Counted from the first letter of the stretch, positions 7,123-64,000 are shown. The stretch: 64,000 bases of DNA from Amoebophrya sp. A120 (GCA_905178155.1 CAJINV010000002.1:3474757-3538756); one strand, 5' to 3'. Notes: generated from the letters alone by a model not told the origin. A program made the numbers and translations.

Positions 7123-9706
7123 ATGAGCGCTCCTGCCGAAGAGCCGAAAGTCCAGGAACAGCAGCAGGCCACTGTGGCCCCCGCTGAGGAGAAGAAGGCT
7201 GAGGAGCAGAAGGTCGCTGCCGGCACGGAAGAAAAGCCGAAACAAGCCGAAGAAACCACCGCTAGTACAACTACCGCGGCTGCCGCTCCCGCTACCGAGG
7301 AAAAAGTAGAACAAACCACCACTTCCAACAAGCGCCCCGCCGAAGATAGTGTTGTGGCTGCCGAAGAGAAAAAGGAAGAGAAAAAGGATGGCGAACAAGA
7401 GCAGAAACCTGCGGCCGAGGAACAAACTGCTGCGGCTAGTGCCCCGCCGGCGAAGAAACAGAAGTTGAACAACAATAAGTTAAATGTCGCGACTGACCAG
7501 GGAATTTTGATCACGGCGGCGAACTCCCACGCGTTGAAGCCGGCCATTCACGATTGCTTGAACATTTTGAAGCGCGCTTTTCCGGACACTGCTACAGCAG
7601 TATGCATTGCAAAAGTATCGTACTCGTATAAATGCATTACAAATTTCCTCAGCATGAGAAATAAAATTTGTAATGCGGATTTACCGTAACAAAAGGATTT
7701 AATGCATGATTGCAATACGAGTGCGATGCTTTTGCACAGGATAAGCAGGTGCCGACGACAAGGCTGGAAAAAGATTCGAACTCTGCAACGATCACAAGCT
7801 GCCGTTCGGTATTGATGAGAATGTTCCTTTTGCATTTGCTGTTGGTTGTTTTCGCATGACAGTCACAGTAATTCTTCCACTTCTTCCTCCTGAACCTGAT
7901 GTCAACATCGCATGCCAATCTGTTCATGCTCACTTGCACTACTTACAAAACCGCACAACAAATTCTGCTAGGTATCGGCTTCGTGAAGTGCAATCAGTCT
8001 CCTACCGCTCCGTTAACCGCGTCCGCCTGCTGCAGCCAGATGTTCGAGAAATTCCAAAACAAGCAGGAAAACTCCCACCATATTTTCCGGCTACTGCCGT
8101 GCGACTTCCTCTGTAAGCCGGACATTGAGGAGTTCAAAAAGCTCGCGGAGAAACACATCAAACCCTTGTTCCCGAAAACGGAAAAAGCGGAAGACAAAAA
8201 GTTGACGTGGGCGCTGAACTTCAAAACCCGGGCGGTGGTATGGAATGTGAAATAAATTTTTCGGAGATTGTTTGCAATTTTTACGCACAGGACGGGGCGC
8301 TTTTTCGATTTAATAAGTGCCTGCATGCGAAAGACCATTCGAGGACAATTATGCTGCGGCTTTTCCAAGGATGTCGAACGGCCAGCTTTTGCAGCCTTCA
8401 CGCAAACTAGCAAGTTTTGGCTCAGACAATCAAAAAAATCGCAGCACCATGGTGATGCATGATTTTTCTGATTGAAAATAACATGCGCTTGCTCTATGTG
8501 ACGCAACAATGGTGCAATTTTTTTCGATTATGAATCTATTTGACCCGCCGTCCTAGTACCTCAAATTGTCTCCGAACAATTTCGACTTTCCCACTCCATA
8601 CTTGAAGAAGATCAACAAGGACCTGATCCTGCAAGTGATCGACCAGTGGTATCAAATGCAAAAATGTCTGGGTCTGGGAGATTCCGAGATTTGTCATGCA
8701 GTTTTTCCAAGCTCCCCCACGTCTGGAATGCAGGGCCTAGCATCACAGGTTCTGCAGCTCCTTGGTGATGCGTATTCTGCATGAGAAATGCTCTCTCAGC
8801 ATGGCCAGAAGTGGGCACCTTTTGCACGTTATGCATCACAGATCTTTGTAGGATCCGAAACACATATCACAAGTTCGGATCCTTCCAGACCCAGACATTT
8901 TTGCGTTTGATAAATGGACCGATGGGTACAAGGTTTCCCTGGACAACCCCGAAGTGTGCATCCAGATCGAGGTGAACCCGGTTTTCATCGGGTTGGCTTT
9001 GATTGACAACCACCAGTGGGGGAAGTTTATCAAGTACAACGTGCAATCGGTGTTGAATCCGGCGCAGGCCCTATGGGGAGGAAAAAGTTTGTTACAGTCA
9101 CTATCTATCTTGGCGGTTCTGCATTACAAATTTTTTGCATCATCACAGCTTTTGCTTGTATTGCTGGAACACCAAGGGAAATCCCGTAGGAAGTTTGGCT
9201 GTGGGGCATTTTTATGCATGACAGTCAGGCATTTTTTGTATTGCAACAATGCACATGAATGATCGTGGTGAGCTTTTTTCTTTTGATAGGCCGCGAAGGA
9301 AGCGGAAAAGCACCGGAGCCGGGAGAAGGCGAACCAGGCGAAAAAAGCGGAGAAGGCTGCTGTATGAACTGCAAAAGTATCGCACTCTCATAAATGCATT
9401 ACGCATTCTCTCAGCATGAGAAATAAAATTTGTAATGCGGATTTACGTTGAGAAAAAAATTCGTAATGCATGATTGCAATAGGAGTGCGATACTTTTGCA
9501 CAGGATATGCCGCTGCGAGTAGTACCACGGGAGTCGAGAAGAAGGCGGAGGAGAAGAAGGAGGAAGCTGCGGCTGCTTGTGCCACTGCAGAGACGAAGAC
9601 CGAAGCTCCTGCGCCCGCCGTTGCCGAGAAGGAAGCCGCTAAGGCCGTTGTTGAGGGAGAACAAGCGAAGACCGCCACGGAGAAGGCGGTGGAGGCTGGA
9701 GCGTAA
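7123..9706 (+). CDS. THUMP-domain protein (Tan1/THUMPD1-like tRNA modification adaptor), 7 exons
   Basis: Spliced: GILITAANS...RLLPCDFLCKPDIEEFKKLA...TWALNFKTRA...NKDLILQVIDQWTDGYKVSLDNPEVCIQIEV. Confidence 0.8.
7601..7743. mobile_element. Introner, family C (TGCAAAAGTATCGTACT TIR)
   Basis: TAT..ATA, TSD AGCAG/AGCAG. Confidence 0.9.
7810..7974. mobile_element. Degenerate introner
   Basis: TCGG repeat on both sides; removal gives KLPFGFVKC. Confidence 0.6.
8239..8600. mobile_element. Degenerate introner
   Basis: TATGGAATGTGAAA / TTTCCCACTCCATA TIR; TSD eroded. Confidence 0.6.
8650..8912. mobile_element. Introner, family A (TGCAAAAATGTCTGGGTCTGGA TIR)
   Basis: TSD AGTGG/AATGG. Confidence 0.9.
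9072..9288. mobile_element. Introner, minor family
   Basis: TAT..ATA, TSD GGCCC/GGCCG. Confidence 0.75.
9363..9507. mobile_element. Introner, family C
   Basis: TSD TGCTG/TGCCG. Confidence 0.9.
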
Positions 9707-10454
9707 AGGCAGAATCGTCGACATGAGAAGGCTATATGTAGTGTTGAATGTGGAAAAATAAAGGGAAACATGAAACTTCCGTTTGCGAATGACACCACTA
9801 CACTTACGAAACCTCCGCGTTTGTCTCTTCGCGACTCGATGACATCGCTTCTCTGGTGTGAGGAGTATGAAGACGAGCTCCTCTATCCAGGTCACAGATC
9901 AGAACCATCACTAACTTTGCTTTTGAACAGCTCAACCTCGAATAAAAGTTAATATCACGCAAACAAGTTCTCGAAAAATTCCATCGCCAAGTAACAGGGA
10001 AAGCATTCTAGGTTCTAGAAATGATGACTTTTCTTTGATGTGATCAAGCCGCTGGGTGGTGGTCACCTCTATCTGTGTTCGAGTTGTATGCAGTACTTGC
10101 TTCTATCCCCCGAGTGTAGTCTCAACTTCTACAGCCTCTGTTTGTTACAATCGGTATGGTTTTTTATTTCGTGTGCTGCCAAAGTTGTGGAGAGAAACGC
10201 GGCTCTGGAAGTTTCACAGGAGCTTTTTTTAGCGCTACTAAGTCAGAAGACAGAAACGAAGCGAGAGCCGATATTCATTGCGCAAAGAAAACGACAGGAA
10301 CAGAAAAAGATTCTCCAAAGGAAAATATCCTTTCCCGTGTCGCAGACGACAGGAGTGCTGCAAAATTAATTGCAATTCAAATCGACCTTTGGTACCTACT
10401 ATAGTTGATTGGAAATTATAAAGTCGCGATAGAACAGAAAAAATCACGAACAAC

Positions 10455-13422
10455 ATGCCCTCCGTCCTGATTGTCTGTACTTCCGCGGCCGAGTTCGGGC
10501 CGGAAAAGTCCCCGACGGTATGAACTGCAAAAGTATCTTAATCGTAGGAGAAGAAATACAAATTAGCTCAGGAAGAGAAATGGAATTTCTCATGCTGATT
10601 TAGGTTGAAAAAGAAATCTGTCTTGCATGACTGCGATTAGTACGAGTGCGATACTTTTGCACAGTATAGACGGGCGTCTGGATTGAAGAACTCGCTTCTC
10701 CGTATTACGCTTTCTTCTATCAAATGCAAATATGTCTCGGTCTGGAAGAGTCCGAACTTGTGATGCTGCATTTGGATTCCAAAAAAATTTGTATTGCATG
10801 AGCAGCAAAGGGAATGCAATTTTTGCTACGCGGAGAGGACATTTGTCATGCGGAATAGGCATCAAGAAGCCCTGATAATATATGTGATGCTAGGGCATGC
10901 ATCACAGACATCATGGCTAATGCAAAACGTGCATGACAAACTCCCCAAATCTTCCAGACCCAGACATAGTTGCAATGCATATCTTAGACGCTGGGTTCAA
11001 TGTGACCGTCGCGAGTCTGGCGGGAGGCGAAATCCCCGTCGACGCCGCTTCCCGCAGTGAGGGGTTTTACACGGATGCGTATCAAAGTGAAAAAAGCCTC
11101 CACCCCATAGCGGAAACGGAAGATGCGCGAATTTGTGATGCTGTATTTGAGTACACAAATCGACTTGTATTGCTAGAAGGCCAAGAGACGAAGCTGCGGC
11201 CTAAATTGCAGGTAATCTGTCATGCTGTTTCCCGCTTCCAGTTGCCTCCTGTCATCCTGGAGCTGCAAGGCTGTCCCACGCTAGACAGCACTACAGTCCG
11301 CACCTTTTGCCTTCTAGCATCACAAAGCTGACTTGTGACCACAAATCTGCATCACAGATTTCCGTTTTGATATGGGGAGGGGGCATTTTTCATTGTAATA
11401 ATGCGGCGAAGAAATTTGATGCGGACGAAACGGCGACGGGTGTGCTCAAGACTAGCAAGAACTTGGCGGACGTGGTAATATTGTATGTTTGAAGTAGAGC
11501 TTGCGATGCAGTTCTGCATGAGAAGTAGAGATATGCGAATGATGCATGTAGCTTGTACCCATGACAAATAAAGCACAGCAGTTTCTCATGTATGTAACGC
11601 ATGCCAAAATAAAATTTCTATCAGGCCGGCGACGAATTTGATGCCGTGTACCTCCCCGGCGGGCATGGTTGCTGCACGGATTTTGTTAGGCATTGCAAAA
11701 GCTGTGTTGCACGAGAATGCCAACGAAGAAATTGCGATTTGTTTGAAGTAGATGTAGCCCTGTCACTATGAACACGACCCGAAGAATAAAGATCTGTCAT
11801 GCAGTATTCCAAGATAGAGTTTGCGCGTTTAAACTTGCGACGCTTTTGCTTTTGCTCACCATAGCTCTTGCGCACGACGGTTTGAAGGCTTGCGTCGAGA
11901 AAATGTACGCTTCGGGAAAGGTGGTTTCTGCTTGCTGCCACGGCCCGGTCGGACTCGCGCAGTGCTGCAAGCCAGACGGTACTTTTTTCGTTTCTCGCGG
12001 AGGCAGCTCTTCTTGCAAGGAATGATACTAAGCTTGTCTCCAATCTAAAACAAAAACTAGCATTAGTCCGTGCAGTTTTTCATTACATGTTTTTGCGCGA
12101 ATCCACCCCAACATATACCCCCCTTCAGGTACCCCCTTGGTGAAGGATTTGAAAGTGTGCGCCTTCATATCCTGAGGAAAAACGTACCCACACCAGAGTT
12201 GTAGTGCAGATTTGCCAAGACAGGAAGACTTGTAATGCGCATCCCCATAAGAGCCATTTCCAATCGTGTTTTGGAATTTGTGATGCTGTGAACAGGATGA
12301 GCCGATGAATCTGTGATGCGGCTGCTCTTGCTAACCTGCACTACACTGCAGAGTGCAACTTCTCATGCTTGACTCACAAAACTCCTAGGTTTGTCTTGCA
12401 AAATCCCCATCCTGACTCTGGTGTGGGTACGTTTTTACTCAGGATACTTCAAGGACACCGAGGAAGCCGCTGTTGGGCACACGGAGAAGGTTGCGTGGCT
12501 GCTGGAGGCCAAGATGAAAGAGCTCGTATCAAAAGCAAATATGTCTGGGTCGGGAAGGTTGCAACTTGTGATGCTGTTTTTCGATTCTAGAAAAATCTGT
12601 AGTATTGCATGACCAGCAAGAGGAGTCCAGTTCGTGCTGCGCAAAAAGGGCGTTTCTCATGCGGGATAGGCATCAGAGAGCTATCTAAAAATCTGTAATG
12701 CTAGGTCATGCATTCGCATTGCAGGCATCATGTGTAATGCAATATGTGCGTGACAATCTAAATCTTCCAGATCCAGACCCAGACATATTTGCATTTGATA
12801 GCTCGGGTGCAAGTACGAATCCGCTGACGATTGGAACTCCGTATCCTGTGCAAAAGTATCGTACTCGTATTGTAATCATGCATTACAAATCTTTTTCTTA
12901 AGGTTAAGGTAAATTCGCAAAAAAAAAATAGTAGCTGGAGATTTCAACTTGCATCGTTATAGAAGCTTGTGTCTGTTCTGTGTTGCCTTAAAAGTTTGCA
13001 TCTGCGCCATGCATCTATTGAAGATATGTTTTTTTGTTGCAGATAGACGACCTTGACTATGGGGCGTGGGCACGAATTCTGGGAGAGTGAAGATTTGCGT
13101 TGCAGATAGATGACCGTGGGGACGCTCTCGGAGATCCGGGATCCGGAGCCGGGTGGGCGAGCGACGCGGACAGGCCAACCAGGCCAACTTCTCATCCACC
13201 CGGCCGGGTGGATGGGAAGTTGGCCTGCAACTACTATTTTTTTTTTGTTACCCCGCTCTTACAAATTTTATTTCTCATGCTGAGAAAATTGCATTTATAC
13301 GAATACGATACTTTTGCAGTTCATACTCCGCGGCGGTGTGCGATGGGCAGTTAATCACGGGGCAAAACCCGCAGTCCTCCGAGGCGGTGGCCAAGTTGAT
13401 CGTCGAGGCATTGAAGAAGTAA
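10455..13422 (+). CDS. DJ-1/PfpI (Hsp31/glyoxalase III-like) protein, 10 exons
   Basis: Spliced: TGVWIEELASPYYAF.DAG...FDAVYLPGGHG...VSACCHGP...LITGQNPQSS. Confidence 0.92.
10519..10668. mobile_element. Introner, family C
   Basis: TSD GACGG/GACGG. Confidence 0.9.
10718..10981. mobile_element. Introner, family A
   Basis: TSD TCTTC/TCTTA. Confidence 0.9.
11080..11400. mobile_element. Introner, family D (CCCCATA/TATGGGG subterminal TIR)
   Basis: TSD ATGCG/ATGCG. Confidence 0.85.
11475..11624 (+). other. Canonical GT-AG intron (150 bp)
   Basis: GTAATA...ATCAG; joins LADV|AGDEFDAVY. Confidence 0.8.
11686..11863. mobile_element. Degenerate family C-like introner
   Basis: GCATTGCAAAAGC / GCTTTTGC..CATA; junction ambiguous. 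Confidence 0.55.
11979..12128 (+). other. Canonical GT-AG intron (150 bp)
   Basis: GTACTT...TTCAG; joins KPDG|TPLVKD. Confidence 0.8.
12168..12446. mobile_element. Introner, family B (TATCCTGAGTAAAAACGTACCCACACCAGAG TIR)
   Basis: TSD CTTCA/CTTCA. Confidence 0.92.
12527..12800. mobile_element. Introner, family A
   Basis: TSD GCTCG/GCTCG. Confidence 0.92.
12842..13325. mobile_element. Introner, family C, with nested insertion
   Basis: TSD CTCCG/CTCCG. Confidence 0.88.
12918..13247. mobile_element. Nested MITE inside introner
   Basis: TIR CAAAAAAAAAATAGTAG / CTACTATTTTTTTTTTG. Confidence 0.7.
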
Positions 13423-15098: not shown

Positions 15099-18000
15099 AT
15101 GAGGTCGGTTCGCGTATTCGCCACCATAATTACCGCTGCCCATGGCGCGGATATTGGGGCGCTTATTTCCGGGCCGACGCAAGCTCGCAAAACAATCGCC
15201 GCGGAAGAAGCGAAACAAAGGGCCGAGCAAGATGCGAGAGCTGCCCAACTAGGTCCGATCCCAGTTGCGCCAGCTACCCAAGGGCTGCTTCCGGCCCCGC
15301 CTGTGGTGCAAGAGGTCCAGGAGGCTGAACAAGTAGATCCGGGGGCGCCCCAAGATCATGCCGTCGTGGCCAACGGGCCCAGGCAGGTGACGGAAAACAA
15401 GAACCGGAAGTGGTCCCCGATTGCCGCCTTTACAAAGTGGGCGGGTTGGATATCAAAAGGAAAAATGCCCCCTCCCCATATCGAAACGAAGTTTCTGATG
15501 CTCGATTTCCGTACACGAATCGGATGTGTCTTGCAGTAGAGCACTACTGCAGACAAATGCCAAACCTGAGCTGAGGGGTTTTGACTAAGGCGCCTAACAT
15601 GGCAAATGTCTATGCTGTAAGCCGAGCAGCATCACAAACCGCCTGTGTAATGCGGCGCAGTCTCTGGGCTTGCCCTCTTGCAAGAGAGACAGGATTTGTG
15701 GACAAATTTTCAGAGGGGTGCGCTTTCAATATGGGGAGAAGTGATTTTTTCTCACAATATTGGACCTGGGACAAAGTGCCGGACGACAAAATGCAAGACC
15801 GGTTGGATAAGTTGCAGTTCTACGTGGACAACATGATGGCGCTCCGCTACGCCAGCGTGGAACCCGAAGCCGAGCGGCAGAAACTGATCCAGCGGCGGAA
15901 ATTGCTGCATGAAAACGAGAAAGTGTATTTTATGTTCGAGTCCGCGGCGGATCAAAATGTCATGCTGTGGACCAGCGAGCAGATTCTGCACGTGCAAATC
16001 CACGAAGGTTGGTCCTACTACATTCGCGGACTGAAGTTTATCGGCACAGAGCAGCCGAAGACCGAGTTCCGGGCCATCCGGTGGGCGAACATTCTCGCGT
16101 GGAGCTTCAAGCCTGTCGCGAAACACCTGTCGTGGTCGACCACTTTCACGTTGCAAACGGAACGGGACGAAATTGATCTCTTATGCACTGCAAAAATGTC
16201 TGGGTCTGGGAACTTGTGATGCTGAGTTGTGAATAGTATAATGCTCTGTAATGCTCAGCCGAGCATGAGAAATATTTGCGCGGCTCCGTGTTGCGTTTTC
16301 CGCATGGTAAACGCGTTTTTGCATGACACGCAAAAGGGCCTCGTCTTGGACACGCATCACAAACTCTTCAGTCATGCCAGACAAGCATGACAAGCCTTGC
16401 ATTTTTCCAGACCCAGACATATTTGCAATCCATATCTCTCCGTGTCGTACAACAGCATCGAGGGGGGGGCCGCGTACGACCTGTTTTACTTCCTCTCTTG
16501 GCGCATCACCTCGGTGGCCTCGCTAAACTTGAAGGCGCCGCGAAAGTATGCGGAAGAGTTCGCGCAGTTTCAAGAAAACAACCCCTGCGATGAGGGCAGC
16601 CCTGAGATGGAGAAGTTCAAGAAAGGTGGGGAAAACCAGGGGATTCTTTCCAAGACGCAGCTGCTTCCCTGGAAAACCCGGCGTGCGATCGTGAACCCGG
16701 TTTGCGTTCAAAACATTTTGTTGCGCGAGAAGGTTTTGATGACGGTATCAAATGCAAATATGTATGGGTCTGGAAACTTGTGATGCTGGGTGGCGTATCA
16801 TGAGGAGGCCACAAGTGCTGGCTCAGCATGACAAGTTTCGGAGCTTCTAGGTCGTGTTGCCTATTCTGCATGACAAACTGCGTTTCTGCATGACAGAAAA
16901 ACGAGGCTCTTGGGTAACGTGCATGACAGATTTAAGAGTCATGCCAGACAAGCATGACAAGCATGCATTCTTCCACGACCCAGACACATTTGCAATGCAT
17001 AGATGGACGAGAATGTGGATTTGGCATTGTCCGCGACCGGCGGGGCGATTGACAAAGACATTCACATGCGGGATTCGATCGTCTTTACCCAGTACTATCC
17101 TGAGTAAAAACGTACTCACACCATAGTTGTCATGCAACTCTGCATGCTTAAAATGTTTCTCATGCGGAGCCCCATGAGAAGCATTTTCTAATGCGGTTTT
17201 GAAATTTGTCATGCTCCATTAATCAGCATGAGATACTGGATCTGTAATGCTGCTAAACTAGCTCAAACAGCACTACACTACGCGTCGGAATTGGTCATGC
17301 CAAACAACCAAAGCTGTGTGATTTGTCTAGCAGATTTCCCATGTTGACTCTGGTGTGGGTACGTTTTTACTCAGGATAAGTACCGCATCATCGTCATTGA
17401 AGTGCCAAACGTCGTTGGCAACTTCCTTGGGACCTCGAAGGCGCTGTATTCTTCCTACACTTACCATTCCATCCGCGCGTGGACCCTGTATCTGCCGAAG
17501 AGTTATCAACTGTAAAAATGTCTGGGTCTGGAAGATTGCAACTTGTCATGCTAAATCCGAACCATGCAAAAATCTGCGTTGCATGAGTGCCAAAAGCTGT
17601 CCACTTTCGACCAAGTTGGGAGGGAGTTTCTCATGCAGGATAGGCATGAAAGTGAAAGAGACCTGACAGACTCTGTCATACTAGGTCCCGCATTCCAGAC
17701 CTCAAGGGCCATGGAAAACCTGCATGACAAGTTCACACTCTTCCAGACCCAGACATTTTTGCATTTCATAACAGTTTTTTCGACATGAAAGGTTCGGTGA
17801 TCAAGCTTTACACCAAAGTTATGCAATGCAAAACAAAGTATCGTACTAGTATGCATTGCATTACAAGTTAGCCCAGCATTACAAATTAAATTTGTAATGC
17901 TGATTTCCCTTGAGAAAAAGATTTGTAATGCATAAATGCAATTACTACGAGTGCGATACTTTTTCAGAGCATAAAAGTCCGCGAGGAGCAATATGTCGAT

Positions 18001-21000
18001 GGCGGGCTCGCGTGGGGGCCGATGGCGATGAATTTGAACGTGAATGGGCAGGTTGACGGCGCCGGTGCAACCTGGCTGTACAACCGGATTTGGGGAGAGG
18101 GCACTGATCCGACGGTGATCACGAATTTACTTGCCTGGCGGGTCCTGGGGTTGCGCGAGGCGCCGCCTTTGGACCCAGCATTGGAAAATCTCCGGGGCGC
18201 GAAGAGTGAAATCGACAACGTATCCTATGTAAAAACGTCCCCATCACATAGTTGTCACTCTCTCTGCGTGGTAAAAATGTAAATGTTTCTCATGCGGAGC
18301 CCCATGAGAAGCATTCTTTGCTAGTCGTGTTTTGGAATTTGTGACGCTCGAAGCAGCATGATATGCTAGATCTGTGATGCTACTTGAAATAGCTAAACAG
18401 GATTACATACACGAGGCCAAACTTGTCATGCGCAGCAACCAAAGCTAGTAGATTTGTCTAGCAGGTTTCCCATCTTGACTTATGAGAATGAGGTGGGGAC
18501 GTTTTTACAAACGATACACCGAAGACGGAAATCCGGTGAACTGGTTTGACTGGATTCTGCAGTCGCGCAACAACGTGGAGCTCCACATCGGAAAAGACAA
18601 CGTTCCAATTATCCTGAGCAAAAACGTCCCCACCCCAGAGTTGTCATGCAAATCTGCATGCCGAAAAAGTTTCTCATGCGAAGCCCCATAAGAAGCTTCT
18701 TCTATTCGTGTTTTGGGATTTGTGATTCTAGAAATAGCATGATATGCTAGATCTGTGCTGCTGCTGAACTAGCTAAACAGGATTACACTACGAGGACGAA
18801 CTTGGTATGCGAAACAACCAAAGTTGGCTGATTTGTCTAGCAGATTTCCCATCTTGACTCTGCTATGGGGACGCTTTTACTCAGGATACCAATCTACAAT
18901 GCGTTGACGGACAAGTACCTCGTGCTGGGCGACGGCTTCGAAACCGTCGAGCTGATCTTCGAGATGTCCATTGGCCTGTGCGTGTTCACGAACCGCCGTA
19001 TCGTTTTGATTCGCAACAAAGGAATCGGCTTTAAACTCGGAGCAGGCCTGGAGTTCCTCGGGGGTAAGCGCTACGTGACGCTGACGTACGACGCGATTCA
19101 GAGTTTCTATGACCGTGCACAAGAACTCCCCCTCGTTCTCATTTCTCATGCAAAATCCCAAACCCAAGTGTTTCCCTTGTATCTCTATTATGCATGACGA
19201 ACCCGGAAGCCCAAGCAGTACTACACTAGCCTCATGAATTTGTCGTGCACAGACTCCATGTGTGTTGGGGTTTGTATTGCTGTTCATGCAATACAAATGA
19301 GGGGAGCTGGGAGTTGTGCACTCTCATAGTTTCAAGGTGAAAGATATGACAACCGTGGAGCAGAAACTGCAGGGGATCGCGAAGTCCTTCGGGAGTACTT
19401 TTTTGCAGCTGAACACCGACATCCCGGATGTTTTTGTTCCGATGCCGGTTGTATCAAATGCAAAAATATCTACTGGGTCTGGAAACTTGTGATGCTGAAA
19501 TTGAATGATAGACGTACTGCAAAACGCAGCGATGCGTGACAAATTGTTTGGCTGCCATGTGTTGTTACGTATTCCGCATGGCATCAAACTGCGTTTTTGC
19601 ATGACAGGTACTAAGAGGGCCTTTTCGTGCCTATGCAACACAGACTCTCGAGTCATGCCAGGCAAGCATGACAAACTAGCACTCTACTTCCGGACCCAGA
19701 CATTTTTCCAATGCATAGGTTGCCGCGGCTACTGCGGACGGTGCGGCGCGCGCCGGGAGGGCTGGGGGTAGTGATGGCGCAGAAGCTGCGGTGATCGCGG
19801 CCGCCATCAATGTCGCATTCATATCAACTGCAAAAATGTCTGGGTCTGGAAGGTTGGAACTTGTGACGCTAACTTTGGACTCTAAAAAAATCTGTATTTT
19901 TGCATGACCAGCAAGAGGAGTCTAGTTTGTGCCACGCGGGGAAGGCGTTTGTCATGCGGAGTAGGCATCGAGAAGCCCGCTAAAAATCTGTGATGCTAGG
20001 ACGTGCATTAGAGACGTCCTGGGTCATGCAGAACATGCATGACAAGTCTCAGAATCTTCCAGACCCAGACATTTCTGCGTTTGATAACTCACGACCACCT
20101 ACAACTATGCTCAAAAACGGGCGCAGGTAGACGGCGGCGTGGAGTCGCATTGCGACACCTTCTATCAAATGCAAATATCGATCTGGGTCTGGCAGCTTGT
20201 GATGCAGGTCAGTGAATAATTAAAGTGAACAACTGTAATGCGCAGCCAAGCATGACAAGTTTATTTTTCGTGCTTCTGTGCTGCGCATTCTGCATGAGAA
20301 ACTGCGTTTCTTTTTGCATCATGACAGGCGAGAGAGGCTGTTCCAACGATGGCCCCACGCAATCCAGAGCGCAGAGTCAACATGCCAACCTACTACAATC
20401 TTCCAGCCGAATGACAAGTTGTCTTGCAATCTTCCAGATGACGCAGATCGATATTTGCAGTTGATACCTTGTGGATCTGTCAAGCCTTTATGCAGTGGGG
20501 TAAAAGCCCGGGTTTAAACAGTATCCGGATCCAGTTTGCCGGCCAGCAAGCGCTTACCAAATGTAAAAATGTCTGGGTCTGGAAGATTGCCAGGTTTGTC
20601 ATGCACATTTTGCATGACTCCTGATGTCTGTGATGCATGCGTTAGCATCACGGATTTTGTGAGGGCTTTGTGATGCCTATATTACCGCATGACAAATGCT
20701 CTTTCCGTGTAGCAAAACTTGGACTCTCTTTGTCCCTGCTGCTCATGCAATACAGATATTTTTAGAATCCAAAATCAGCATGACAAGTTGGATTCTTTCA
20801 GACCCAGACACTTTTACAGTTGATAGCGCTGTTTAAATTGCAAGCCTACCTCACTTTTCGCCTCACCCGGATCGGACACGCAGGCGGGAACGTGCTGCCT
20901 GTATGAAATGCAAAAGCATCGTACTCGTAGTAATTGCATTTTTGCATTAGAAATGTCTTTTTCAAAGTAAATCAGCATTACAAATTTAATTTGTAATGCT

Positions 21001-52500: not shown

Positions 52501-55114
52501 TTGCCGAGCGTCTGCAGCAACACAATTGTCCGGCGGTAGGGTTTGAATATGATAACAGGAACAGGCTTCAGTCCCTGAAGTTTGTCTTCCGACCGAATTG
52601 GCAAGAAGAAGTGGAGCGAGGCCAGTTGAAGATTTTCTACCGAGAGAGGCAGCAAGACCGAATCACCCTTGACGAAGCGGTCGAGGTGTCTATCGATGAC
52701 GCTTTGTGGACCTTCCTCGAGAGCAGCGCTTTTGGTGATGCACCAGATGAAAGGTTTGACAAGTTTAACGACTGCCTCGCGCACACGTATCGAGGTGCGC
52801 GGGTTTCCTACCTTGGTAGCCTGCAGCTGCTGGACCTAACACTGACCAGCCAACGGCACAACCTTTCCGAGCTCCTCGGGACTCGCACGAGCCTCGGCAA
52901 CCGGCTGCGGGAGGCGGTGCTCAGTAGCCCCAGTTACAAAAGGGCGATGGAAGTTCAGGCACAGTGGATCAGGTTCCTAACGGAATGGGAGGTGGTTTGG
53001 CGCCAGGAGGTTTGGACATGGCACTTCCAAGTGATGAAGGATTTTGTGGGGTTGGAAGCTGATGAACCGAACTACCAGATGCTGGACACTTTGAAACGAG
53101 AGAGCAATCTGCGCGCTGCTGTTTTTAAAGCGTGGGAAAGTGTCTCTTTTGCGGTTCGTGTGGCCCACCTGCGGGAAGATAAGCCGGACGCCTGTCTCGT
53201 CGGTCTCGCGGGCAGCACCAAGGCCGCCCCCCCTGCGGTCTCCTGCGGGCTGCCTGTCTCCCGTCGCCTCCCAGGCGGCATATCTGGTGCCAACGAGCAC
53301 CCGCGAAAAAAGTTGGAGGCGATTATGACCAATGAGATCCTTGTCTTCGAGCACTTGGACCCGATCAAGAGCATCGAGGAAATGGTGAGCGAGGGAAAAG
53401 TGGGGGCCACAATGCTTTCATCGGAACGGCTGCTGCTGCTTAGCTTTGATATTCCCAAAGCTGCAGCCCCATCCGCCAAGTGTAGCGCTAGTTCTGATGA
53501 CAAGCATCTTCCTTCGCCAGACGGCGCCATCGGCAAACATGATTCGCCAGAAGGGCGGGAAGCATTCTCGTCCGGGCTACAACTTGGGGCACTACTCGAA
53601 GACGAGCAAAAAAACGATGAAGCGCGCGCGAAGGCAACGGGTGTGAATTTCACAGTTGACTATCAAATCGACAGTCCCGCCTTCATGGCCAATCTTCTGG
53701 ACTTCTTTATCAAATAAAAAAAAACCTCCGTTTCGCGGTACACGACATATTGTGATCATCATGCAAAGAAATTTATGCAACTACACGGGATGTTAAACCC
53801 CTGCTGGAACTGCAAAATAAACTATCTTCCTACTCAATATGGAAGTTGTAGACACCAGATTTGTAGCTGTGGCGTCTTCTCAAAAGAAAACGCACTGCGC
53901 ATGGCAACAACAAATAAATTTTTCATCTTTATTGGCATGTGGCGCTGCAGAAGGCTCCTTCTACACAAGATTTATTTGCCTACCGTGCATATGATAATTA
54001 AATAAACCCCCAAGCAAAGTCCGTCGTGTGTAATGAAATCGACCACTTTTTCCGGACGATACAGATACTTTTGAATCTTGGCTTTTCGAAGGAGGTCGGG
54101 AAAAAGAAGAGCCCATCACCACGTTCCGTCCCGAAAGCCGAGTGGGAAAAATTGAAAAAGCAGTTGTTGGACGACTTGACAGACGCGCAGGTGAAAGAAA
54201 AGTTGGAGGAGCATGACGAGAAGCGGGTTTTGCACCGCAGAATCATGATGGACATCTTATTCCAGGAACCCGGAGCAGATGCATTGGAATTCCTGAAAAA
54301 TCGCACGAAACAATTCGACAAGGGAGTCCCGAAGCACAAAAAACCTCTTGCTGCGTTTGTGGGAGGAGGTGGTCAAGGAACAATCCCTGAAGCTTCCGTC
54401 AAGGATATCCTGAGTAAAAACGTACCCACACCAGAGTCAGGATGGGGATTTTGCAACACAAACCCAGGAGTTTTGTGAGTCGCGCATGACAAGTTGCACT
54501 CTGCAGTGTAGTGCAGGTTAGCAAGTGCAGCCGCATCACAGATTCGTCTGCTCATCCTGTTCACAGCATCACAAATTCCAAAACACGACTGGAAATGGCT
54601 CCCATGGGGATGCGCATTACAAGTCTTCCTGTCTTTGCAAATCTGCATTACAACTCTGGTGTGGGTACGTTTTTACTCAGGATAAAGGAAGGATCGGGTC
54701 GTGCGGGCCAGGACGTCGACGACCTGAAGAAGATATGAAATGCAAAAGCATCGTGGTACTCGTATAAATGCATTACAAATTTTGTCAGCATGAGAAATGA
54801 AATTTGTGATGCGGATTTACCTTAAGAAAAAGATTTGTAATGCATGACCGCAATACGAGCGCGATACTCTTGCACAGGATAGAAGAAGTCCCCTTCAGGT
54901 CAAGGCCGCCGACGTGGTGGAGCTGCACGGAGCCCTTCGGCTAGCCGAAGGAAAAGCCGAAGTCCCTCACCGCACAGCAGGAAGAGCCGAAGTCCCTCAC
55001 CGCATATCGTCCGCACAGTGGGAAAAAATAAAAGGGGCAAGAAACCTAGTAGTAAAAAAAAGTAATGCGACAAGATCTACTACTAAATTTAAGGGTAAGG
55101 AACATCTGACCTAG
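49527..55114 (+). CDS. Hypothetical protein with N-terminal hydrophobic segment; multi-exon (extension beyond 53717 tentative)
   Basis: Frame open after removing elements and one GT-AG intron; removing 53708-54067 gives LLDFLNLGFSKE. Confidence 0.6.
49808..50026. mobile_element. Introner, family I (TGTTTCACTGTAA TIR)
   Basis: TSD TCGCT/TCGCT. Confidence 0.88.
50705..50959. mobile_element. Introner, family A
   Basis: TSD GTGTG/GTGTG. Confidence 0.92.
51005..51440. mobile_element. Introner, family A, with nested insertion
   Basis: TSD CGAGC/CGAGC; TIR of about 30 bp. Confidence 0.92.
51148..51326 (+). mobile_element. Nested insertion with (CTA)n tail, possible non-LTR/SINE fragment
   Basis: Flanked by TGCAT/TGCAT; absent from sister copy 16746-17001. 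Confidence 0.6.
51696..51944 (+). other. Canonical GT-AG intron
   Basis: GTAAGT...ATAAG restores the frame. Confidence 0.7.
52135..52310. mobile_element. Degenerate introner
   Basis: TAT..ATA, TSD GAGAT/GCGAC, in-frame join. Confidence 0.6.
53708..54067. mobile_element. Tentative highly degenerate introner
   Basis: TATCAAAT..GATA; removal links two ORFs in frame. Confidence 0.4.
54406..54684. mobile_element. Introner, family B (inverted relative to 12168 and 59403)
   Basis: TSD AAGGA/AAGGA. Confidence 0.92.
54734..54881. mobile_element. Introner, family C
   Basis: TSD GAAGA/GAAGA. Confidence 0.92.
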
Positions 55115-57687: not shown

Positions 57688-60600
57688 ATGTTCGGTGGTG
57701 GTGATCCCTTGCTTGCCGCGTTGTTTGCAAAAATCGAACAAGCGCCCGTTGCTGCGTCGCCTGCTGCGAAACCGAAAGAGGACAACAATCTGCCTCCCAC
57801 ACGAGGAGCATGTGACGGCGCGGACGAAACTGGGCACGGGAACGACCTTCAACATGAAGAAGCCGTTGCTGGGTCGAAGCGTCCTGGCCACGGCGAGGCG
57901 TCAGCGGGTGTGGGGAATGATCTCGTGGAAGTAGACGAGGAGGAATCAAAGTTTTCTAGTACGACCGTCGGAAGTTCGAGCGAGACAGAGGGGCAAGAGG
58001 TAGAGCTAGAGGATCACCAAATAGTGCGAGAACAGTCAACAAGGCAACCACCGGCCGCAAACAAGCCAACCGCCCTTCCTGTCGTAGAAGATGAACCACC
58101 TCCGCGGCCACGACCTCGTCTCGAAAAAGTATCCGAAAGTACTGGTAGAACCGTCTACGAGCCGCTAAGAAACAACCGCGCCAGCGTGAAGACCACTAAT
58201 AGTGCCAGTGCCTCTTCTACAACTACCTCTGCGAACATAAATCCATCCAGCCTAAACATCCCGCCAATCAAGCTAAAACTACAGGATTTGATCGAGTTTT
58301 TGCAACAGAAACCAAGTGTATCTCCGGGTATATGAGAGTCCGCAACCCCCCCTCCCCCTCCTTTGTCATGCAAAATCCGAAACCCAGTCGCTGCCCTGTG
58401 GCACTTTTCGCGTGACAAATTCCGGAAGCCCAAAGGGTACTACATGAGGCGCATATTTTTGTCATGCATCGGTTCCATGTGTGCTGGTGTCAGTGTCTGT
58501 ATTGCTGCTCATGCCATACAAATGAGGGGGAGGGGCGGGAGTTGTGCACTCTCATAGGGCAGCTCGTCTTGTCAGAAAAGCGCGTCGTCTCCACCAGCTT
58601 CGTCGTCCCTCTCCGAATCGGAGCGATTAGTGTTCGTCGCCCGACTATGAAATGCAAAAGCATCGACATCGTACTAGTACAAATCGCATGACAAATTTCC
58701 TCAGCATGAGAAAGAAAATTTCTAATGCGGATCTAACCTGAGAAAGAAATTTGTAATGCTTGAATGCGATTAGTACGAGTACGATACTTTTGCACAGGAT
58801 ACCGGCTTTGTGAGGAGGCCGTCCCGCAGTTCCAGCATCTGTGGCAGATTTTGTCACGGCTGTTATGCATTGCAAATATGTCTGGGTCTGCATTTGTGAT
58901 GCAGGACTTCAAGGACAACAAGATCTGTAATGCATGAACACGATTTGCCAGTTTTTTTGGCATGCTGGATGGCAGTTTGTAATGCTAAACACGAAAGAAT
59001 CTGCAAGGAGCCGAGTGAAATTTCTCATGGTGTCATGCCGTACAGGCAGCCAGTTTGCAATGCAAGTATTAGCAACACAAGTTTCCAGACCCAGACAGAT
59101 TTGCGTTTGATAACTGTTGTCGTTGAACGACCCGCAAAACGAGCAGGAAAATTTGACGGGTTTGAAGAAGAAAATGATAGAAGTTTTAAGAGAATTCAAT
59201 ACCAGCGGGAATGTGGAGATCGACGTGGCGGGAGTGTTGGAGAAATTGGTGAAAGAGCACGAGTTGGAAACAGGTGGAAGTACACGTAGTGGTGGTAACG
59301 CTAACGCTGCAAATAAAACACCGGCGACAACAACCACTTTCAGAATTCCGGAAATGCCGGTTCTTGGGTTGGGTTTGTGGAAGATGACAGAACAGGAAAC
59401 TCTATCCTGAGTAAAAACGTACCCACACCAGAGTTGTAATGCAGATTTGCAAAGACAGGAAGACTTGTGATGCGCATCCCCATGAGAGCCATTTCCAATC
59501 GTGTTTTGGAATTTGTGATGCTGTGAACAGGATGAGCAGACGAATCTGTGACGCGGCTGCACTTGCTAACCTGCACTACGCTGCAGAGTGCAACTTGTCA
59601 TGCGTGACTCACAAAACTCCTAGGTTTGTGTTGCAAAATCCCCATCCTGACTCTGGTGTGGGTACGTTTTTACTCAGGAAAACCTCCTGTATCGTCTTCC
59701 TCCAGTGCGTCGACATCCACGGGAACTACTCGGAAAAGAACAGCAGATATCCTGTTTAAAAACGTCCCCACCCCATAGTTGTCATGTAAATCTGCATGCT
59801 GACCTGAGAATCGAATGTTTATGTTCCGCATGCGGAGCCCCATGAGAAGCGTTTTCTAGTCGTGTTTCGGAATTTGTCATGCTCGAATCAGCATGACAGA
59901 CTAGATCTGTGATGCTCTTGAACTAACTGAGCAGGATTACACTACAAGGCCCAACTTGTCATGCGCAACAGCCGAAGCTGTTTGATTTGTGTAGCAGATT
60001 GCCTATCTTGACTATGGGAAGGGGACGTTTTTACTCAGGATAGCAGAACTCAAATCCCTATTGAAACACGCGATTCTCAACTGCACTTGCCGGCGTTTCG
60101 ACACGGCAGCGACCTACGACGATTCCGAAAATGTTTTAGCGGAGGTGCTACATGAGGTTTTGTCATGCAGCACCAGCACAGGAAATTTGTCCCGCTCGGA
60201 TTTCTTCATCCAGACCAAGCTCCCCGATCACGGGTGGAAAAACCCGCAGAAACACATCGACTATCAAATGCAAAAGTGTCTGGGTCTGGAAGGATGTAAC
60301 TTGTGATGCGCATTTCAGAACACACAAAAATCTCTGATGCATAGGCAGCAAAAGCTGCTCACTTTCTGTCACAAAAATGAGGGACTTGTCATGCGGATTC
60401 AGCATTGCGGAAGCTTCTCCTCGAGACCTGTGATACTAGAGCTTCCACGCCAGACCTTCATTTTGTGTCATGCAGAAACAGCATGACTCTTCCAGACCCA
60501 GACACTTTTACATTTCATATCGACGAAGCGTGTGCAAAATTTCCGGGTGGTTACATCGACTTGTATCTGATTCACCACCCAATCACGAAAAGAAGAGACG

Positions 60601-63600
60601 CGGTGGAGGAGGAGGAGGCGTCGAATACGAAAAATAAGAAACCGAAGAACAAGGCGCTCTACTCATTATCCAGTGCAAAAGTATCGTACTCGTAGTAATT
60701 GCAGTCATGCATTACAAATCTCGTTCTCAAGGCAAATCAGCATGACAAATTCCATTTGTCATGCTGAGCGAATTTGTATTGCAATTCATACTAGGACGAT
60801 GCTTTTGCAATGCATACTCATCGAACCAAGACGAGTTTCATCTCACGGCCGTATGCTGTGCAAAAGTATCGTACTCGTACTAATTGTATTTATGCATTAC
60901 AAATCTAGTTCCCAAGGCAAATCCGCATTAAAAATTCAATTTGTAATGCTGAGCCAATTTGTATTGCAATTTATACTAGTACGTTACTTTTGCAATTCAT
61001 AGGCCGAGGAGTTCTCGGATCACTTGCGAAGAGTTTGGAAAGTTCTCAACGATATCAAATGCAAAAATGTCTGGGTCTGGAAGGATCCGAATTTGTGATG
61101 CGAATTCCACAACACGCACAAATCTTTCATGCATAGGCAGCAAAAGGTTCCCACTTTCTGTCACCAAACAGGGGGATTTGCCATGCGGATTAAGCATTGC
61201 GGAACGTTCTCGAAATCTGTGATGCTAGGGCTTCCATGACAGACCCTCTAAGTCATGCAAAAACACCATGACAAAAATCTGCATTCTTCCAGACCCAGAC
61301 ATTTTTGCAATCCATAAACGACAACGTTTTGCAGAAGAAGATCAAATACATCGGAGTGTGCAACTTTTCCGAGAACGACTTGAAAATTCTAGCCGGAATG
61401 ACGTCCATGATTAGTCCGTCTATGTCGAAGGAGCTGTCCGACAAGCGATCAAACGTCGATGTTCTTGATGTTGAACCACCGCGAGACGATGAAGTCTACA
61501 AACCCGCCCCAGCAATACGCTTCCCTGACGTCGTGCAAGGGAAGTTTTCTCTGTTTCATCCCTGGAACGCCTACGCAGATCCGGAGGGGGAGTATCAGTC
61601 GGTGCTGGGGAGATATGTGGAAAGAAGGGACGACGAGAAAGAATCAGAATGTGAAGCGCGACAAAGTTACAGTACCAGCAGTTCTTTATCTCCAGGAGTT
61701 GTTTTCGACGGCGTTTCGCTAGTCCAAGAAGTGAATCACGAGGGTCTGTTCAGCGTGTTTAACTGCGGGAAATTGGTCGAGAAGATAGTGGAAGCTGTGT
61801 CCGCTTGTAGTACAACGACAGATGTCATGCAGCATTTACTGAAGTGGAGAAGCGACTGGCGAGGGTACTGCGGCTTGGTTCGGTGCCGGACGAAGGAGCA
61901 CTTGAATGACGTTTTTTCTCCTACTGCTCAAGGTCAAGGGGGACAGCATGACAAATCTCGATCACCTCGTCCGTCAAGCATGACAAATTACACGACCCTC
62001 TATCGCATCTTCGACAGCCTGCACCGGTTGATCACGCTGGAGACCTTCAACTTCAGTCCGGTAAACCCACTAGCTTCTCATGCGGAAATCGCTTTGCAAA
62101 GCAGTTCGACGTCATCCCTCTACCTTGAATCCCGCCGGAACTTTCTCCTGACCGAACTGTTCGCCCTTGAGGAAAAAACGCCCTTTTTCGACGAGGAGCT
62201 GGCGATGCAGCAGTTTCAATCGATCATGAACAGTAGCAAAGGCTTCCCTGATTTGATCGAAAAACTGAAGCAGCAATTGAAGAAGAACGGCGCCACGGGG
62301 TTGCTCTCGACAAAAGCCTTTGTCGCGGCGATCCGAAATTTCGTTCAGGAGGCGAAAAGAAGAAACTTTACCAACCGCGTGCAGATCTACGAGAAAGTAG
62401 AGCAGCTGTTGGTGGAGCTGTACGAAACGGAGAGGAAGTCCAGCTTTGAGAAGTTGAAAGAGTATTTGAAAGAAAGAAACGAACGGAAGGAGAAGGAGGA
62501 GAAAGATTTGAAAAAATCCTATAACTACAGCTGGGACAGCGCGCTGCGGGGGAACAGCTGGGTGTTCGATGGGTTCAGTGAGGAGAAAGGTAGTAAGGCT
62601 GCTGGTGGTGGTACGTCTGCAGGTAATTATGGCGGTAGCTCAGCATCCTCGTCTAGTTCCCCCGACGCCGTTGTGATCGACGCGGAGGATTTACCAAAGT
62701 ATTTCAAGGACGACGGCGAAAATAACGGAAGATCGGAATCTTACTTCAAACTCGCGTGGTCTAGCCCGAAAGAGCAGAAAAAAACGTGGGAGCAAATTAA
62801 CAAATCCTTGGACAAAAATCACTTCGCAATCATCGACAACTTCATGACGTTGCCCACTGCCACCAAAATCAAGCAGGAGGTGTTTGACTTGAATTTCACG
62901 CCCTCGGAAATTTGGGTCGGCAGGGATGGGGGGATCGGTGCGCACGTGCACAAGCTATGCAATACAAATTTCCTGTACATGTACAAAATGCATGACAAAT
63001 TTCGCTAATTCGGAGTGTCGAACTTGTCATGCTGACTAGGAACGAGAGAGAGTTTTGTCATGCAGAGACTGCATTTGTGCGTGTACGGGAAATTTACTGT
63101 GCATACAAGCCCGAGGTTCGGGGGGATGACATCATCTGGATCTGCGGCCAGCACAAGACGCACTGGAAGGTATGCATTGCAAAAGTATCGTACAACTAGT
63201 AGTGATTGCATTACAAATTTGCTTAGCATTACAAACGAAATTTGTAATGCGGTTTCACCTTCGGAAGGAGATTTGTCATGCATAAGAGCAAGAAGTACTA
63301 CGAGTGCGATACTTTTGCAGAGCATAGAAGGAGAGATTGTACGACTCCGCCGGGGTGCAACCGGAAAGCCATGGAATCGGAAAACAAGCCGGGTTGCAGG
63401 TGTGTAAGTTACCGGAGGAGAATGAGGATCCGATTCCGAATCTTCTTGTAGCTGGGTCTTCAAATGCCGAGAAGAAGAAAAACCCGAATAAGAAACCGCA
63501 CCAATCCGAGTTTCCCACTTTATCCAGCACGTTGAATACTTTGGATAGCAAAATCTACGAGAATATCAAATGCGTCGGCGAACTCGTGGAGCGCTCTGAC

Positions 63601-64000
63601 TGCATGATCGGGCGGTACTCGGGGCAGAAAAAGGCAAGATTTCAGAAGCACGTGGACAACACGCAGGAAGATGGGCGTAGACTCGCTTGCGTCGTGTACT
63701 TAAACGACCCGGAGTGTTGGAACGTGGAGGAAGACGGTGGGGACTTGAAACTGCATCTTCCACAGACAATTATCAAATGTAAAAATGTCTGGGTCTGGAA
63801 GAATGCATGTTTGTCATGCTTGTCTGGCATGACTCTCAAATCTGTCATGCACTTGACCCACGAGCCCCATTCTTCTGTGATGCAGAAACGCAGTTTGTCA
63901 TGCAGAATAGGCAACACCTAGGACCTCAGAAACTTGTCATGCTGAGCCAGCATTTGTAGCCTCATCATGAGACGCCACCCAGCATCACAAGTTTCCAGAC
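57688..64000 (+). CDS. Aldo-keto reductase fused to EGLN/PHD-type 2OG-Fe(II) prolyl hydroxylase; 3' end beyond window
   Basis: AKR: MPVLGLGLWK, FDTAATY, FIQTKL, YIDLYLIHHP, IKYIGVCNF; PHD: VRGDDIIW, CMIGRY..FQKHVDN..DGRRLACVVYLN..W....GGDLKL. Confidence 0.85.
58331..58556. mobile_element. Introner, family E
   Basis: TSD GGGTA/GGGCA. Confidence 0.87.
58646..58801. mobile_element. Introner, family C
   Basis: TSD CCGAC/CCGGC. Confidence 0.88.
58864..59112. mobile_element. Introner, family A
   Basis: TSD GCTGT/ACTGT. Confidence 0.88.
59403..59681. mobile_element. Introner, family B (end mutated ATA to AAA)
   Basis: TSD AACTC/ACCTC. Confidence 0.88.
59748..60042. mobile_element. Introner, family B
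   Basis: TSD GCAGA/GCAGA. Confidence 0.92.
60262..60519. mobile_element. Introner, family A (inverse of 50705-50959)
   Basis: TSD TCGAC/TCGAC. Confidence 0.92.
60667..60816. mobile_element. Introner, family C
   Basis: TSD CTCAT/CTCAT. Confidence 0.92.
60852..61001. mobile_element. Introner, family C
   Basis: TSD GGCCG/GGCCG. Confidence 0.92.
61053..61316. mobile_element. Introner, family A
   Basis: TSD AACGA/AACGA. Confidence 0.92.
62956..63105. mobile_element. Introner, family J (AAATTTCC.GTACA TIR)
   Basis: TSD CAAGC/CAAGC; removal gives HKPEVRGDDIIW. Confidence 0.88.
63171..63326. mobile_element. Introner, family C
   Basis: TSD GAAGG/GAAGG. Confidence 0.92.
63771..64000. mobile_element. 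Introner, family A, truncated by window end (inverse of 16746-17001)
   Basis: Left TIR TATCAAATGTAAAAATGTCTGGGTCTGGAA; right TIR begins at the window edge. Confidence 0.88.

Follow-up and report, generated by a model that had tools for sequence, protein, structure and literature searches.

Junction register and direction-dependent end constraint of transposon-derived introns in Amoebophrya sp. A120

Transposon copies in the coding sequence of eight genes

We analyzed a 64,000-nt stretch of DNA (the window) from Amoebophrya sp. A120, a source established by the A120 proteins CAD7932989.1 and CAD7932991.1, which exon queries returned and to which our spliced gene models are letter-identical, and found eight plus-strand genes whose coding sequence is interrupted by short elements with terminal inverted repeats (TIRs) and flanking direct repeats. 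Because the window is A120 DNA and the anatomy fits, we equate these elements with the introners that Farhat et al. (2021) described in A120; the element class, its strain and its anatomy have almost certainly been published already. In the portions of that paper used here, A120 introners carry an inverted repeat that starts with TAT and continues with seven freer bases and at least three A residues, form a hairpin, encode no transposase and are flanked by direct repeats of 3–5 nt (with a 5-bp example), with a mean length of 240 nt, 29,850 members and support from RNA sequencing (PMC7789003). As summarized in the parts of Gozashti et al. (2025) consulted, A120 introners are attributed to diverse TIR DNA transposons and reach tens per gene, a treatment of mobilization and not of a junction rule; its Dataset S2 gave no match for Amoebophrya (PMC12130899). 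The window elements share with published A120 introners the strain, the TAT start, the seven freer nucleotides, the A run, the direct repeat and the repeated families, and differ in a repeat that is strictly 5 bp, in a register of removal that fits all informative junctions and in a direction-dependent constraint on two bases, U at intron position +2 and A at position −7 from the 3′ intron end. The fixed register and the U+2/A−7 asymmetry were not found in the literature searched, which did not include Roy et al. (2023), Henriet et al. (2019) or Figures 3 and S19–S25 of Farhat et al. (2021), and the comparison suggests that these two features are what is new here.

The element set combines a scan for paired TAT…ATA ends bearing 30-nt inverted repeats with an end profile and curation by hand; it comprises 58 complete elements of 143–484 nt between 7601 and 63326 and a further element at 63771 that the window end truncates, and two inner insertions lie within elements (Table 1). 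The original prediction, made from the sequence alone, had counted about 62 elements, close to this tally, and had spread them from 7601 to the end of the window, which holds only in part, as no element lies between 25.1 and 39.3 kb. Its description of the ends was borne out (56 of 58 elements start with TAT and 56 end with ATA), as was its count of 36 perfect 5-bp repeats; it had put single mismatches at about 19, and we find 18, with two mismatches in two elements and three in another two, so that the two repeat copies differ in 22 of 58 elements and 54 carry at most one mismatch. Perfect repeats of 4, 6, 7, 8 or 9 bp occur in 0/58 elements for each length. A scan for TIR pairs returned 66 in the window, 43 of them with at most one repeat mismatch, whereas 30 order-2 Markov simulations together yielded one.

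All 58 elements fall within the coding sequence of the eight genes, which totals 16.0 kb, with none in 23.4 kb of other window sequence and none in 8.5 kb of intronless open reading frames (ORFs), a distribution that suggests either that some genes are targeted or that copies outside exons are lost fast. The element-free stretches, 1–7100 and 25100–39100, include the intronless ORFs at 2615, 27233/27951, 33462 and 35675. Excising each element plus 5 nt, together with six GT-AG introns, yields open frames in 8/8 invaded genes, including one of 1204 amino acids (aa) that spans 21 elements and the frame of the last gene, which spans 11. Restoration of frames and conserved motifs had been predicted for several of these genes: on the spliced models, DJ-1, aldo-keto reductase and 2OG-Fe(II) oxygenase score in Pfam, and THUMP falls just short of the cut-off (E 0.0012).

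The elements are non-autonomous TIR DNA transposon copies, resembling MITEs (miniature inverted-repeat transposable elements): they have TIRs, a target-site duplication (TSD) of fixed length, no coding capacity (longest open frame 104 codons) and copies in both orientations. They form six families of 2–12 copies, four of which are present in both orientations, plus 19 singletons. TIR positions 11–13 are A in 93–95% of seed ends; positions 1–3, 9 and 11–14 are complementary in 52–58 of the 58 elements, against only 19–38 for positions 4–7, and a stem at positions 9–14 is predicted in 52/58, against 39/58 for a terminal 3-bp stem. Predicted folding ranges from −46 to −189 kcal/mol. An 8-nt motif, probably a transposase-binding repeat, has 162 occurrences within elements (14.4 kb) and 18 in the remaining 49.6 kb. 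No transposase family was found in 13 window proteins or in 115 long ORFs of the metagenome loci described below, and we therefore assign no superfamily. In the parts of the source consulted, hAT5 has a 5-bp TSD, and IS3EU has TAY…RTA-type ends and a 6-bp TSD, the families described there ending in TAYGG (PMC12730594); the elements agree with the hAT5 TSD length and with the IS3EU TAY ends, but not with the 6-bp TSD of IS3EU (0/58 perfect).

Removal from the message and the junction register

Excision of the element plus 5 nt is shown for 14 of the 58 elements by RNA contigs and by the two deposited proteins, THUMP (CAD7932989.1) and DJ-1 (CAD7932991.1), both of which this removal reproduces exactly; in these proteins one family is excised in both orientations (8650 versus 10718 and 12527). 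Four sequencing runs were mapped on window positions 7050–25250, of which the RNA read runs X9 and X10 gave two reads each; the data come from run X1, which behaves as DNA, and run X3, which we guess to be RNA. X3 contigs omit 314 nt (309+5) and 258 nt (253+5), the spliced contigs standing at depth 55–99. The idea that the invaded genes are pseudogenes whose elements stay in the RNA has nothing in its favor beyond the missing splice signals and can be practically dismissed: it is refuted for the 14 elements checked, and the spliced contigs, the deposited proteins, the open frames in 8/8 genes and the interruption of RPB1 in a metagenome contig speak against it. That contig (L029) carries elements of the same kind at 1279–1570 and 3001–3262, within the gene for the largest subunit of RNA polymerase II.

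The original prediction had named DNA excision like that of internal eliminated sequences as an alternative; such precise excision would act in some nuclei or at some life stage. Loss of the element with one repeat copy is the outcome expected of precise transposon excision, only one run is DNA-like, and the RNA status of X3 is a guess. In X1, however, contigs run unbroken across the elements at 8239, 9072, 11687, 23799 and 24784 at a depth like that of flanking DNA (26–36; unique stretches lie at 24–36 and elements at summed depths up to ~1e5), and no element-free junction appears among the 15 joints listed of 1058, a figure from contigs of this one DNA-like run. X3 lacks a canonical intron as well as the elements, and also holds one element-retaining contig at depth 4. 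As contigs show presence rather than absence and a single run is DNA-like, they would on their own leave DNA excision merely unlikely; the decay of element ends, which follows transcript direction (see below), makes it extremely improbable. The prediction thus finds no support on this point, and the elements are very probably removed at the RNA level. Against this stands the circumstance that the deposited proteins rest on aligned transcripts and may have data in common with X3.

Where the two repeat copies differ, the junction can be placed, as the original prediction had proposed. We define the register k as the number of repeat bases (N1–N5) retained from the upstream copy. The RNA pieces place k at two elements, since one stops at 16743 and another starts at 9512, the other 297 letters of the latter contig equaling the modeled exons (30+44+154+69). 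The deposited proteins bound k from below at 11687, from above at 9072 and 10718, and from both sides at 8239 (Table 1), so that the DJ-1 protein is reproduced by k=4 only and the THUMP protein by k 2–4, and a paralogue that retains F at 23799 weakly supports k≤4. That paralogue, 43% identical and from A120, was returned with one weak match by a HMMER search with the 1204-aa gene and is informative at one of the seven non-synonymous junctions listed; the deposited protein of the 1204-aa gene itself was not found (40 candidates, none scored). A register of 4, in which the intron reads N5-TAT…ATA-N1N2N3N4, fits 7/7 informative junctions, and under it introns start with NTA in 58/58 elements, compared with GTA in 6/6 canonical introns. 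Motifs in the part of Table S4 of Farhat et al. (2021) consulted agree with register 4: T stands second in every one of the nine most frequent non-canonical ends of A120, the nine A25 ends all read TT, and A25 repeats start TTA+RR, again U+2/A+3 (PMC7789003).

The repeat appears to be a footprint, with the cut likely measured from the TIR, because the two elements with 3/5 repeat mismatches still leave as element plus 5 nt, and because nearby canonical dinucleotides go unused, a GT lying 1 nt upstream at 11685 and, 3 nt downstream, an in-frame AG at 8606–8607. Two canonical readings were rejected: 11685–11864 as a GT-AG intron is out of frame and the DJ-1 protein (P0002) fits element plus 5, and 8238–8607 conflicts with an extra lysine in the protein of the THUMP gene (P0001). 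The statement of the original prediction that, in the cases it checked, sliding the junction does not give GT..AG holds for 53 of the 58 elements across registers −2 to +7; GT/GC-AG is reachable for five, two of which (21561 and 63171) are GT-AG at register 4, leaving non-GT-AG ends in 56/58.

Several observations temper the case for a single register. Only seven junctions are informative among 22 mismatched elements. The registers from RNA depend on joints being placed leftmost, as we infer from five other piece ends (7595, 7971, 13325, 15445 and 16175). If registers were independent and uniform, k=4 would fit all seven with probability 0.016 and some shared register with probability ~0.10, which makes the fit suggestive rather than proof. 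Applied to 65 mismatched copies, a codon-likelihood test favors k 3–5 without separating them, its best value being 5, and this test and a stop-codon test disfavor only k 0–1. The agreement with Table S4 may partly reflect aligner tie-breaking. We nevertheless consider one fixed register for all elements probable. The competing proposal is splicing guided by hairpin and direct repeat at a register that differs from one element or molecule to another, the product being the same whenever the repeat is perfect. It draws on the shared-register chance, on the codon test and on the Figure 3 legend of Farhat et al. (2021), according to which the position of splice sites varies with respect to the hairpin (PMC7789003, consulted in part). 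We judge it improbable: the 7/7 junctions that fit 4 are bounded on both sides, elements with 3/5 mismatches exit as element plus 5, and mismatch rates by codon position (27/467, 19/438 and 39/490) fit one unconstrained copy per repeat position.

Direction-dependent decay and candidate machineries

A 30-nt end pattern led to 127 metagenome loci (L001–L127; the 80 listed share one assembly prefix) holding 284 elements of the same families, 227 with perfect 5-bp repeats and none overlapping the window in exons; 51 of 58 window elements match copies there at 69–96%. A codon classifier oriented 221 of 276 of these copies, and when trained on intronless ORFs only it called 51/58 window elements correctly and none wrongly, leaving 7 uncalled. 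Detection that ignored the three terminal bases allowed 214 of 267 copies to be oriented, which together with the 58 window elements gives 272. Counted at the 5′ versus the 3′ end, changes in these copies number 0 versus 6 at TIR position 1, 2 versus 4 at position 2 and 7 versus 1 at position 3, an asymmetry between positions 1 and 3 with Fisher p=0.0047. In register-4 numbering, protection falls on U+2 (272/272) and A−7 (271/272). Within the window, terminal sites are changed at 4/348, against 17/189 first- or second-codon-position repeat sites (p=1.6e-5). Strand-biased mutation cannot explain the asymmetry because the two positions go in opposite directions, and base pairing alone does not account for position 3 because pairing would favor U-G over C-A, the reverse of what is observed. 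Selection thus follows transcript direction, which points to removal at the RNA level and argues against excision of DNA.

This reading has its own weak points: the asymmetry is built on 14 events, its p value in the loci alone is 0.002–0.03 in four filter settings and 0.1 under the strictest strand filter, A−7 is G in one element (42337–42492), and A+3, retained in 270/272 copies, is changed in 2/272. Selection for G+1 or AG and a drift of the intronic repeat copy towards them were both rejected. A target-site sequence preference was likewise rejected, none being clear. Insertion phase is uneven, register 4 placing 120/279 introns in phase 0 (p=0.0007).

We favor, with modest confidence, the spliceosome as the machinery that removes the elements, since U+2/A+3 match the 6/6 canonical GTA donors and there are precedents in Giardia and Fritillaria. 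U+2 and a branch A are required by spliceosome chemistry. Slightly better than an even bet is the more specific proposal of a relaxed, probably U1-independent spliceosome for which the repeat's UA serves as donor, the 3′ cut is measured from the hairpin end and A−7 is a possible branch. A TIR element, mobilized by a transposase presumably encoded elsewhere, would insert into an exon in either orientation and create the repeat N1–N5; the exon regains its original sequence once element plus 5 nt is taken out, as shown for the 14 elements above. The cuts would fall 1 nt ahead of the TIR on the 5′ side and 4 nt beyond it on the 3′ side, as the seven informative junctions suggest, with no need for repeat identity, G+1 or AG. 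U+2/A+3 may act as a U1-independent donor like the GTA donors of this genome, and the predicted stem at TIR positions 9–14 may join the ends, the near-invariant A−7 serving as branch at a fixed distance to the 3′ cut. A−7 as the branch nucleotide is a tentative assignment. More speculative, and somewhat doubtful, is the notion that the spliceosome reads the transposon end as such, the terminal trinucleotide supplying the donor N-U-A at the 5′ end and its reverse complement the branch A−7 at the 3′ end; because the 3′ cut would be counted 4 nt past the TIR without an AG, any insertion, in any exon and either orientation, would then leave without trace. In the relevant part of Farhat et al. (2021), A120 retains 83/89 spliceosomal proteins, with U2, U4, U5 and U6 present and U1 not found (PMC7789003).

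Several features count against a spliceosome. G+1 is not in excess (90 versus 85 expected), AG stands at −2/−1 in 23 and GT-AG in 7 of 279 copies, biases that a spliceosome might be expected to leave; a U2-type branch motif was not found around A−7; and, the terminal three bases aside, the 5′ end nearly mirrors the 3′ end. These absences, with the euglenid precedent, keep alive a route that uses the same fixed register, in which a structure-measuring endonuclease and an RNA ligase, or euglenid-like machinery releasing a full-length circle, would remove the element. Indifference to bases +1, −1 and −2, TIR symmetry, the stem at positions 9–14 in 52/58 elements and removal in both orientations would all suit it, as would the euglenid nonconventional introns, which have TIRs and repeats and exit as circles without lariats (PMC11282704, consulted in part). 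We regard it as unlikely, since it does not predict U+2 and A+3 in two unrelated invasions (A120 TAT, A25 TTA), since position 3 tolerates a C-A mismatch and rarely shows a U-G wobble, which indicates base rather than pairing specificity, and since the terminal 3-bp stem is predicted in only 39/58. Self-splicing, to which the strong predicted folding might point, is very improbable: removal copes with unrelated cores of 143–484 nt, with both orientations and with inner insertions, and Rfam returns 0 families in the window at the gathering score.

The nearest known systems, each drawn from a partly consulted source, differ in instructive ways. In Fritillaria borealis, MITE-derived non-canonical introns with TIR and TSD are removed by an adapted U2 spliceosome, with ends mostly AG-AC/AG-AT, whereas in the A120 elements any of the 16 dinucleotides can occur at the 3′ end and U+2 alone is fixed (PMC11282704, a review). 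Euglenid nonconventional introns, per the same review, have a TIR hairpin and repeat-like borders, a proposed MITE origin and a mechanism given as unknown, and are released as circles; they show a Y/R border consensus with the TIR from +4, whereas in the A120 elements the TIR starts at +2 and the border bases (−1 exon, +1, −1 intron and +1 exon) are mixed. Giardia introns have a donor VTATGTT with free +1, a fixed branch-to-3′ distance and internal pairing in long introns, but Giardia and Trichomonas introns keep a CTRAC branch motif and AG, are few and are not transposon copies (PMC6679479).

Farhat et al. (2021), in the portions consulted, leave the border position and the mechanism unknown and term the sites variable (PMC7789003). 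A single register, an invariant U+2 and a candidate branch A−7 make both questions directly testable in a genome in which about two-thirds of introns are non-canonical, and the register rule would fix the annotation of ~30,000 introns. Traceless removal at one position would explain the genome's tolerance of so many insertions. If removal is spliceosomal, this spliceosome dispenses with G+1 and AG and perhaps also with U1, which bears on the limits of splice-site relaxation and on how transposons create introns. The broader claim of the original prediction, that these are transposon-derived, non-canonically removed as the element plus one repeat and members of a published Amoebophrya class, agrees with the TIRs and 5-bp TSDs, the A120 identity and Farhat et al. 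(2021).

Coordinates and other features of the window

Table 1. Host genes, canonical introns and elements of the window (strand, 5-bp repeat as left/right copy, and register k where informative)
Feature	Coordinates	Strand	Repeat	Remarks
THUMP-domain gene, 421 aa	7123..9706	+		CAD7932989.1; 5 elements, 1 canonical intron
DJ-1/PfpI gene, 227 aa	10455..13422	+		CAD7932991.1; 7 elements, 2 canonical introns
1204-aa gene	15099..25075	+		paralogue of bPH-domain protein (P0006); 21 elements, 2 canonical introns
1076-aa gene	39102..44397	+		no function assigned; 8 elements, 1 canonical intron
414-aa gene	49527..51698	+		3 elements
Open frame	51950..53717	+		start not fixed; 1 element
Open frame	54032..55066	+		start not fixed, end approximate; 2 elements
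Aldo-keto reductase + 2OG-Fe(II) oxygenase gene	57688..64000	+		11 complete elements, 1 truncated by window end
GT-AG intron, GTATTG	7809..7971	+
GT-AG intron, GTAATA	11475..11624	+
GT-AG intron, GTACTT	11979..12128	+
GT-AG intron, GTATAT	23046..23471	+		inferred from frame
GT-AG intron, GTATGC	23554..23738	+		inferred from frame
GT-AG intron, GTAAAG	42944..43125	+		inferred from frame
Element	7601..7743		AGCAG/AGCAG	removal shown
Element	8239..8600		GGTGG/CTTGA	informative, k 2-4; in-frame AG 8606-8607 unused
Element	8650..8912		AGTGG/AATGG	synonymous mismatch; removal shown
Element	9072..9288		GGCCC/GGCCG	informative, k≤4
Element	9363..9507		TGCTG/TGCCG	informative, k≥4; RNA piece begins 9512
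Element	10519..10668		GACGG/GACGG	removal shown
Element	10718..10981		TCTTC/TCTTA	informative, k≤4
Element	11080..11400		ATGCG/ATGCG	removal shown
Element, decayed, TAG start	11687..11863		TTTGT/GCTCT	informative, k≥4; GT at 11685 unused
Element	12168..12446		CTTCA/CTTCA	94-95% like 54406 (inverted) and 59403
Element	12527..12800		GCTCG/GCTCG	removal shown
Element	12842..13325		CTCCG/CTCCG	339-nt inner insertion ~12920-13258; removal shown
Element	15451..15759		TTGGA/TTGGA	RNA contig omits element+5
Element	16182..16434		TCTCT/TCTCT	RNA contig omits element+5
Element	16746..17001		GACGG/GATGG	informative, k≥3; RNA piece stops at 16743
Element	17096..17378		AGTAC/AGTAC
Element	17504..17770		AGAGT/ACAGT
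Element	17820..17973		AAAGT/AAAGT
Element	18221..18516		CAACG/CACCG
Element	18610..18888		CCAAT/CCAAT
Element	19108..19328		GTTTC/GTTTC
Element	19452..19717		GGTTG/GGTTG
Element	19822..20086		ATTCA/ACTCA
Element	20163..20466		CCTTC/CCTTG
Element, TAC start	20555..20825		GCGCT/GCGCT
Element	20902..21051		GCCTG/GCCTG
Element	21190..21496		GACCG/GGCCG
Element	21561..21825		CAAGG/CAAGG	GT-AG at k=4
Element	22051..22351		TACTG/TACTG
Element	22613..22883		CAAGC/CAAGC
Element	23799..24180		CTTTC/CTGTT	weakly informative, k≤4 (paralogue retains F)
Element	24360..24638		GGGGA/GGGGA
Element	24784..25050		GATGT/GATGG
Element	39392..39643		GAGAA/GAGAA
Element	40704..40957		CGTCT/CCTCT
Element	41011..41219		CGAAT/CGAAT
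Element	41828..42083		GAGCG/GAGCG
Element, GTA end	42337..42492		GCGCT/GCACT	sole exception to A−7
Element	42581..42868		GACGA/GACGA
Element	43268..43436		GACGA/AACGA
Element	43736..43994		GTTTC/GTTTC
Element	49808..50026		TCGCT/TCGCT
Element	50705..50959		GTGTG/GTGTG
Element	51005..51440		CGAGC/CGAGC	inner insertion ~51148-51326
Element, decayed	52135..52310		GAGAT/GCGAC
Element	54406..54684		AAGGA/AAGGA	inverted copy of 12168 family
Element	54734..54881		GAAGA/GAAGA
Element	58331..58556		GGGTA/GGGCA
Element	58646..58801		CCGAC/CCGGC
Element	58864..59112		GCTGT/ACTGT
Element, AAA end	59403..59681		AACTC/ACCTC
Element	59748..60042		GCAGA/GCAGA
Element	60262..60519		TCGAC/TCGAC
Element	60667..60816		CTCAT/CTCAT
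Element	60852..61001		GGCCG/GGCCG
Element	61053..61316		AACGA/AACGA
Element	62956..63105		CAAGC/CAAGC
Element	63171..63326		GAAGG/GAAGG	GT-AG at k=4
Element, truncated by window end	63771..64000

Two end-like matches were rejected in curation, one at 43129 that coincides with a canonical acceptor and one at 53708 for which no partner end was found. The 339-nt insertion, with inverted ends that are A-rich/T-rich and a near-perfect hairpin inside, is an element of another type, sheltered within an intron; the insertion at 51148–51326 is flanked by TGCAT repeats and contains a 36-bp tandem duplication. Between 57688 and 63770 a long gene joins a degenerate aldo-keto reductase domain to a C-terminal 2OG-Fe(II) oxygenase domain, and the intronless ORF at 35675–38149 and the gene at 39102–44397 are adjacent paralogues (blastp E 1.7e-22).

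Elsewhere, positions 31300–33000 and 46300–48200 are GC-rich islands (62–71% GC), mutually dissimilar and with no Pfam match in the ORFs tested. Tandem arrays whose palindromic units form larger inverted repeats (11-, 32- and 96/99-bp units) occupy 5963–6526 and 45668–46329, and a 90-bp tandem array lies at 1533–1983. By eye, near-identical non-coding duplications of 120–160 bp pair 4185–4345 with 4905–5065 and 4785–4905 with 5185–5310.

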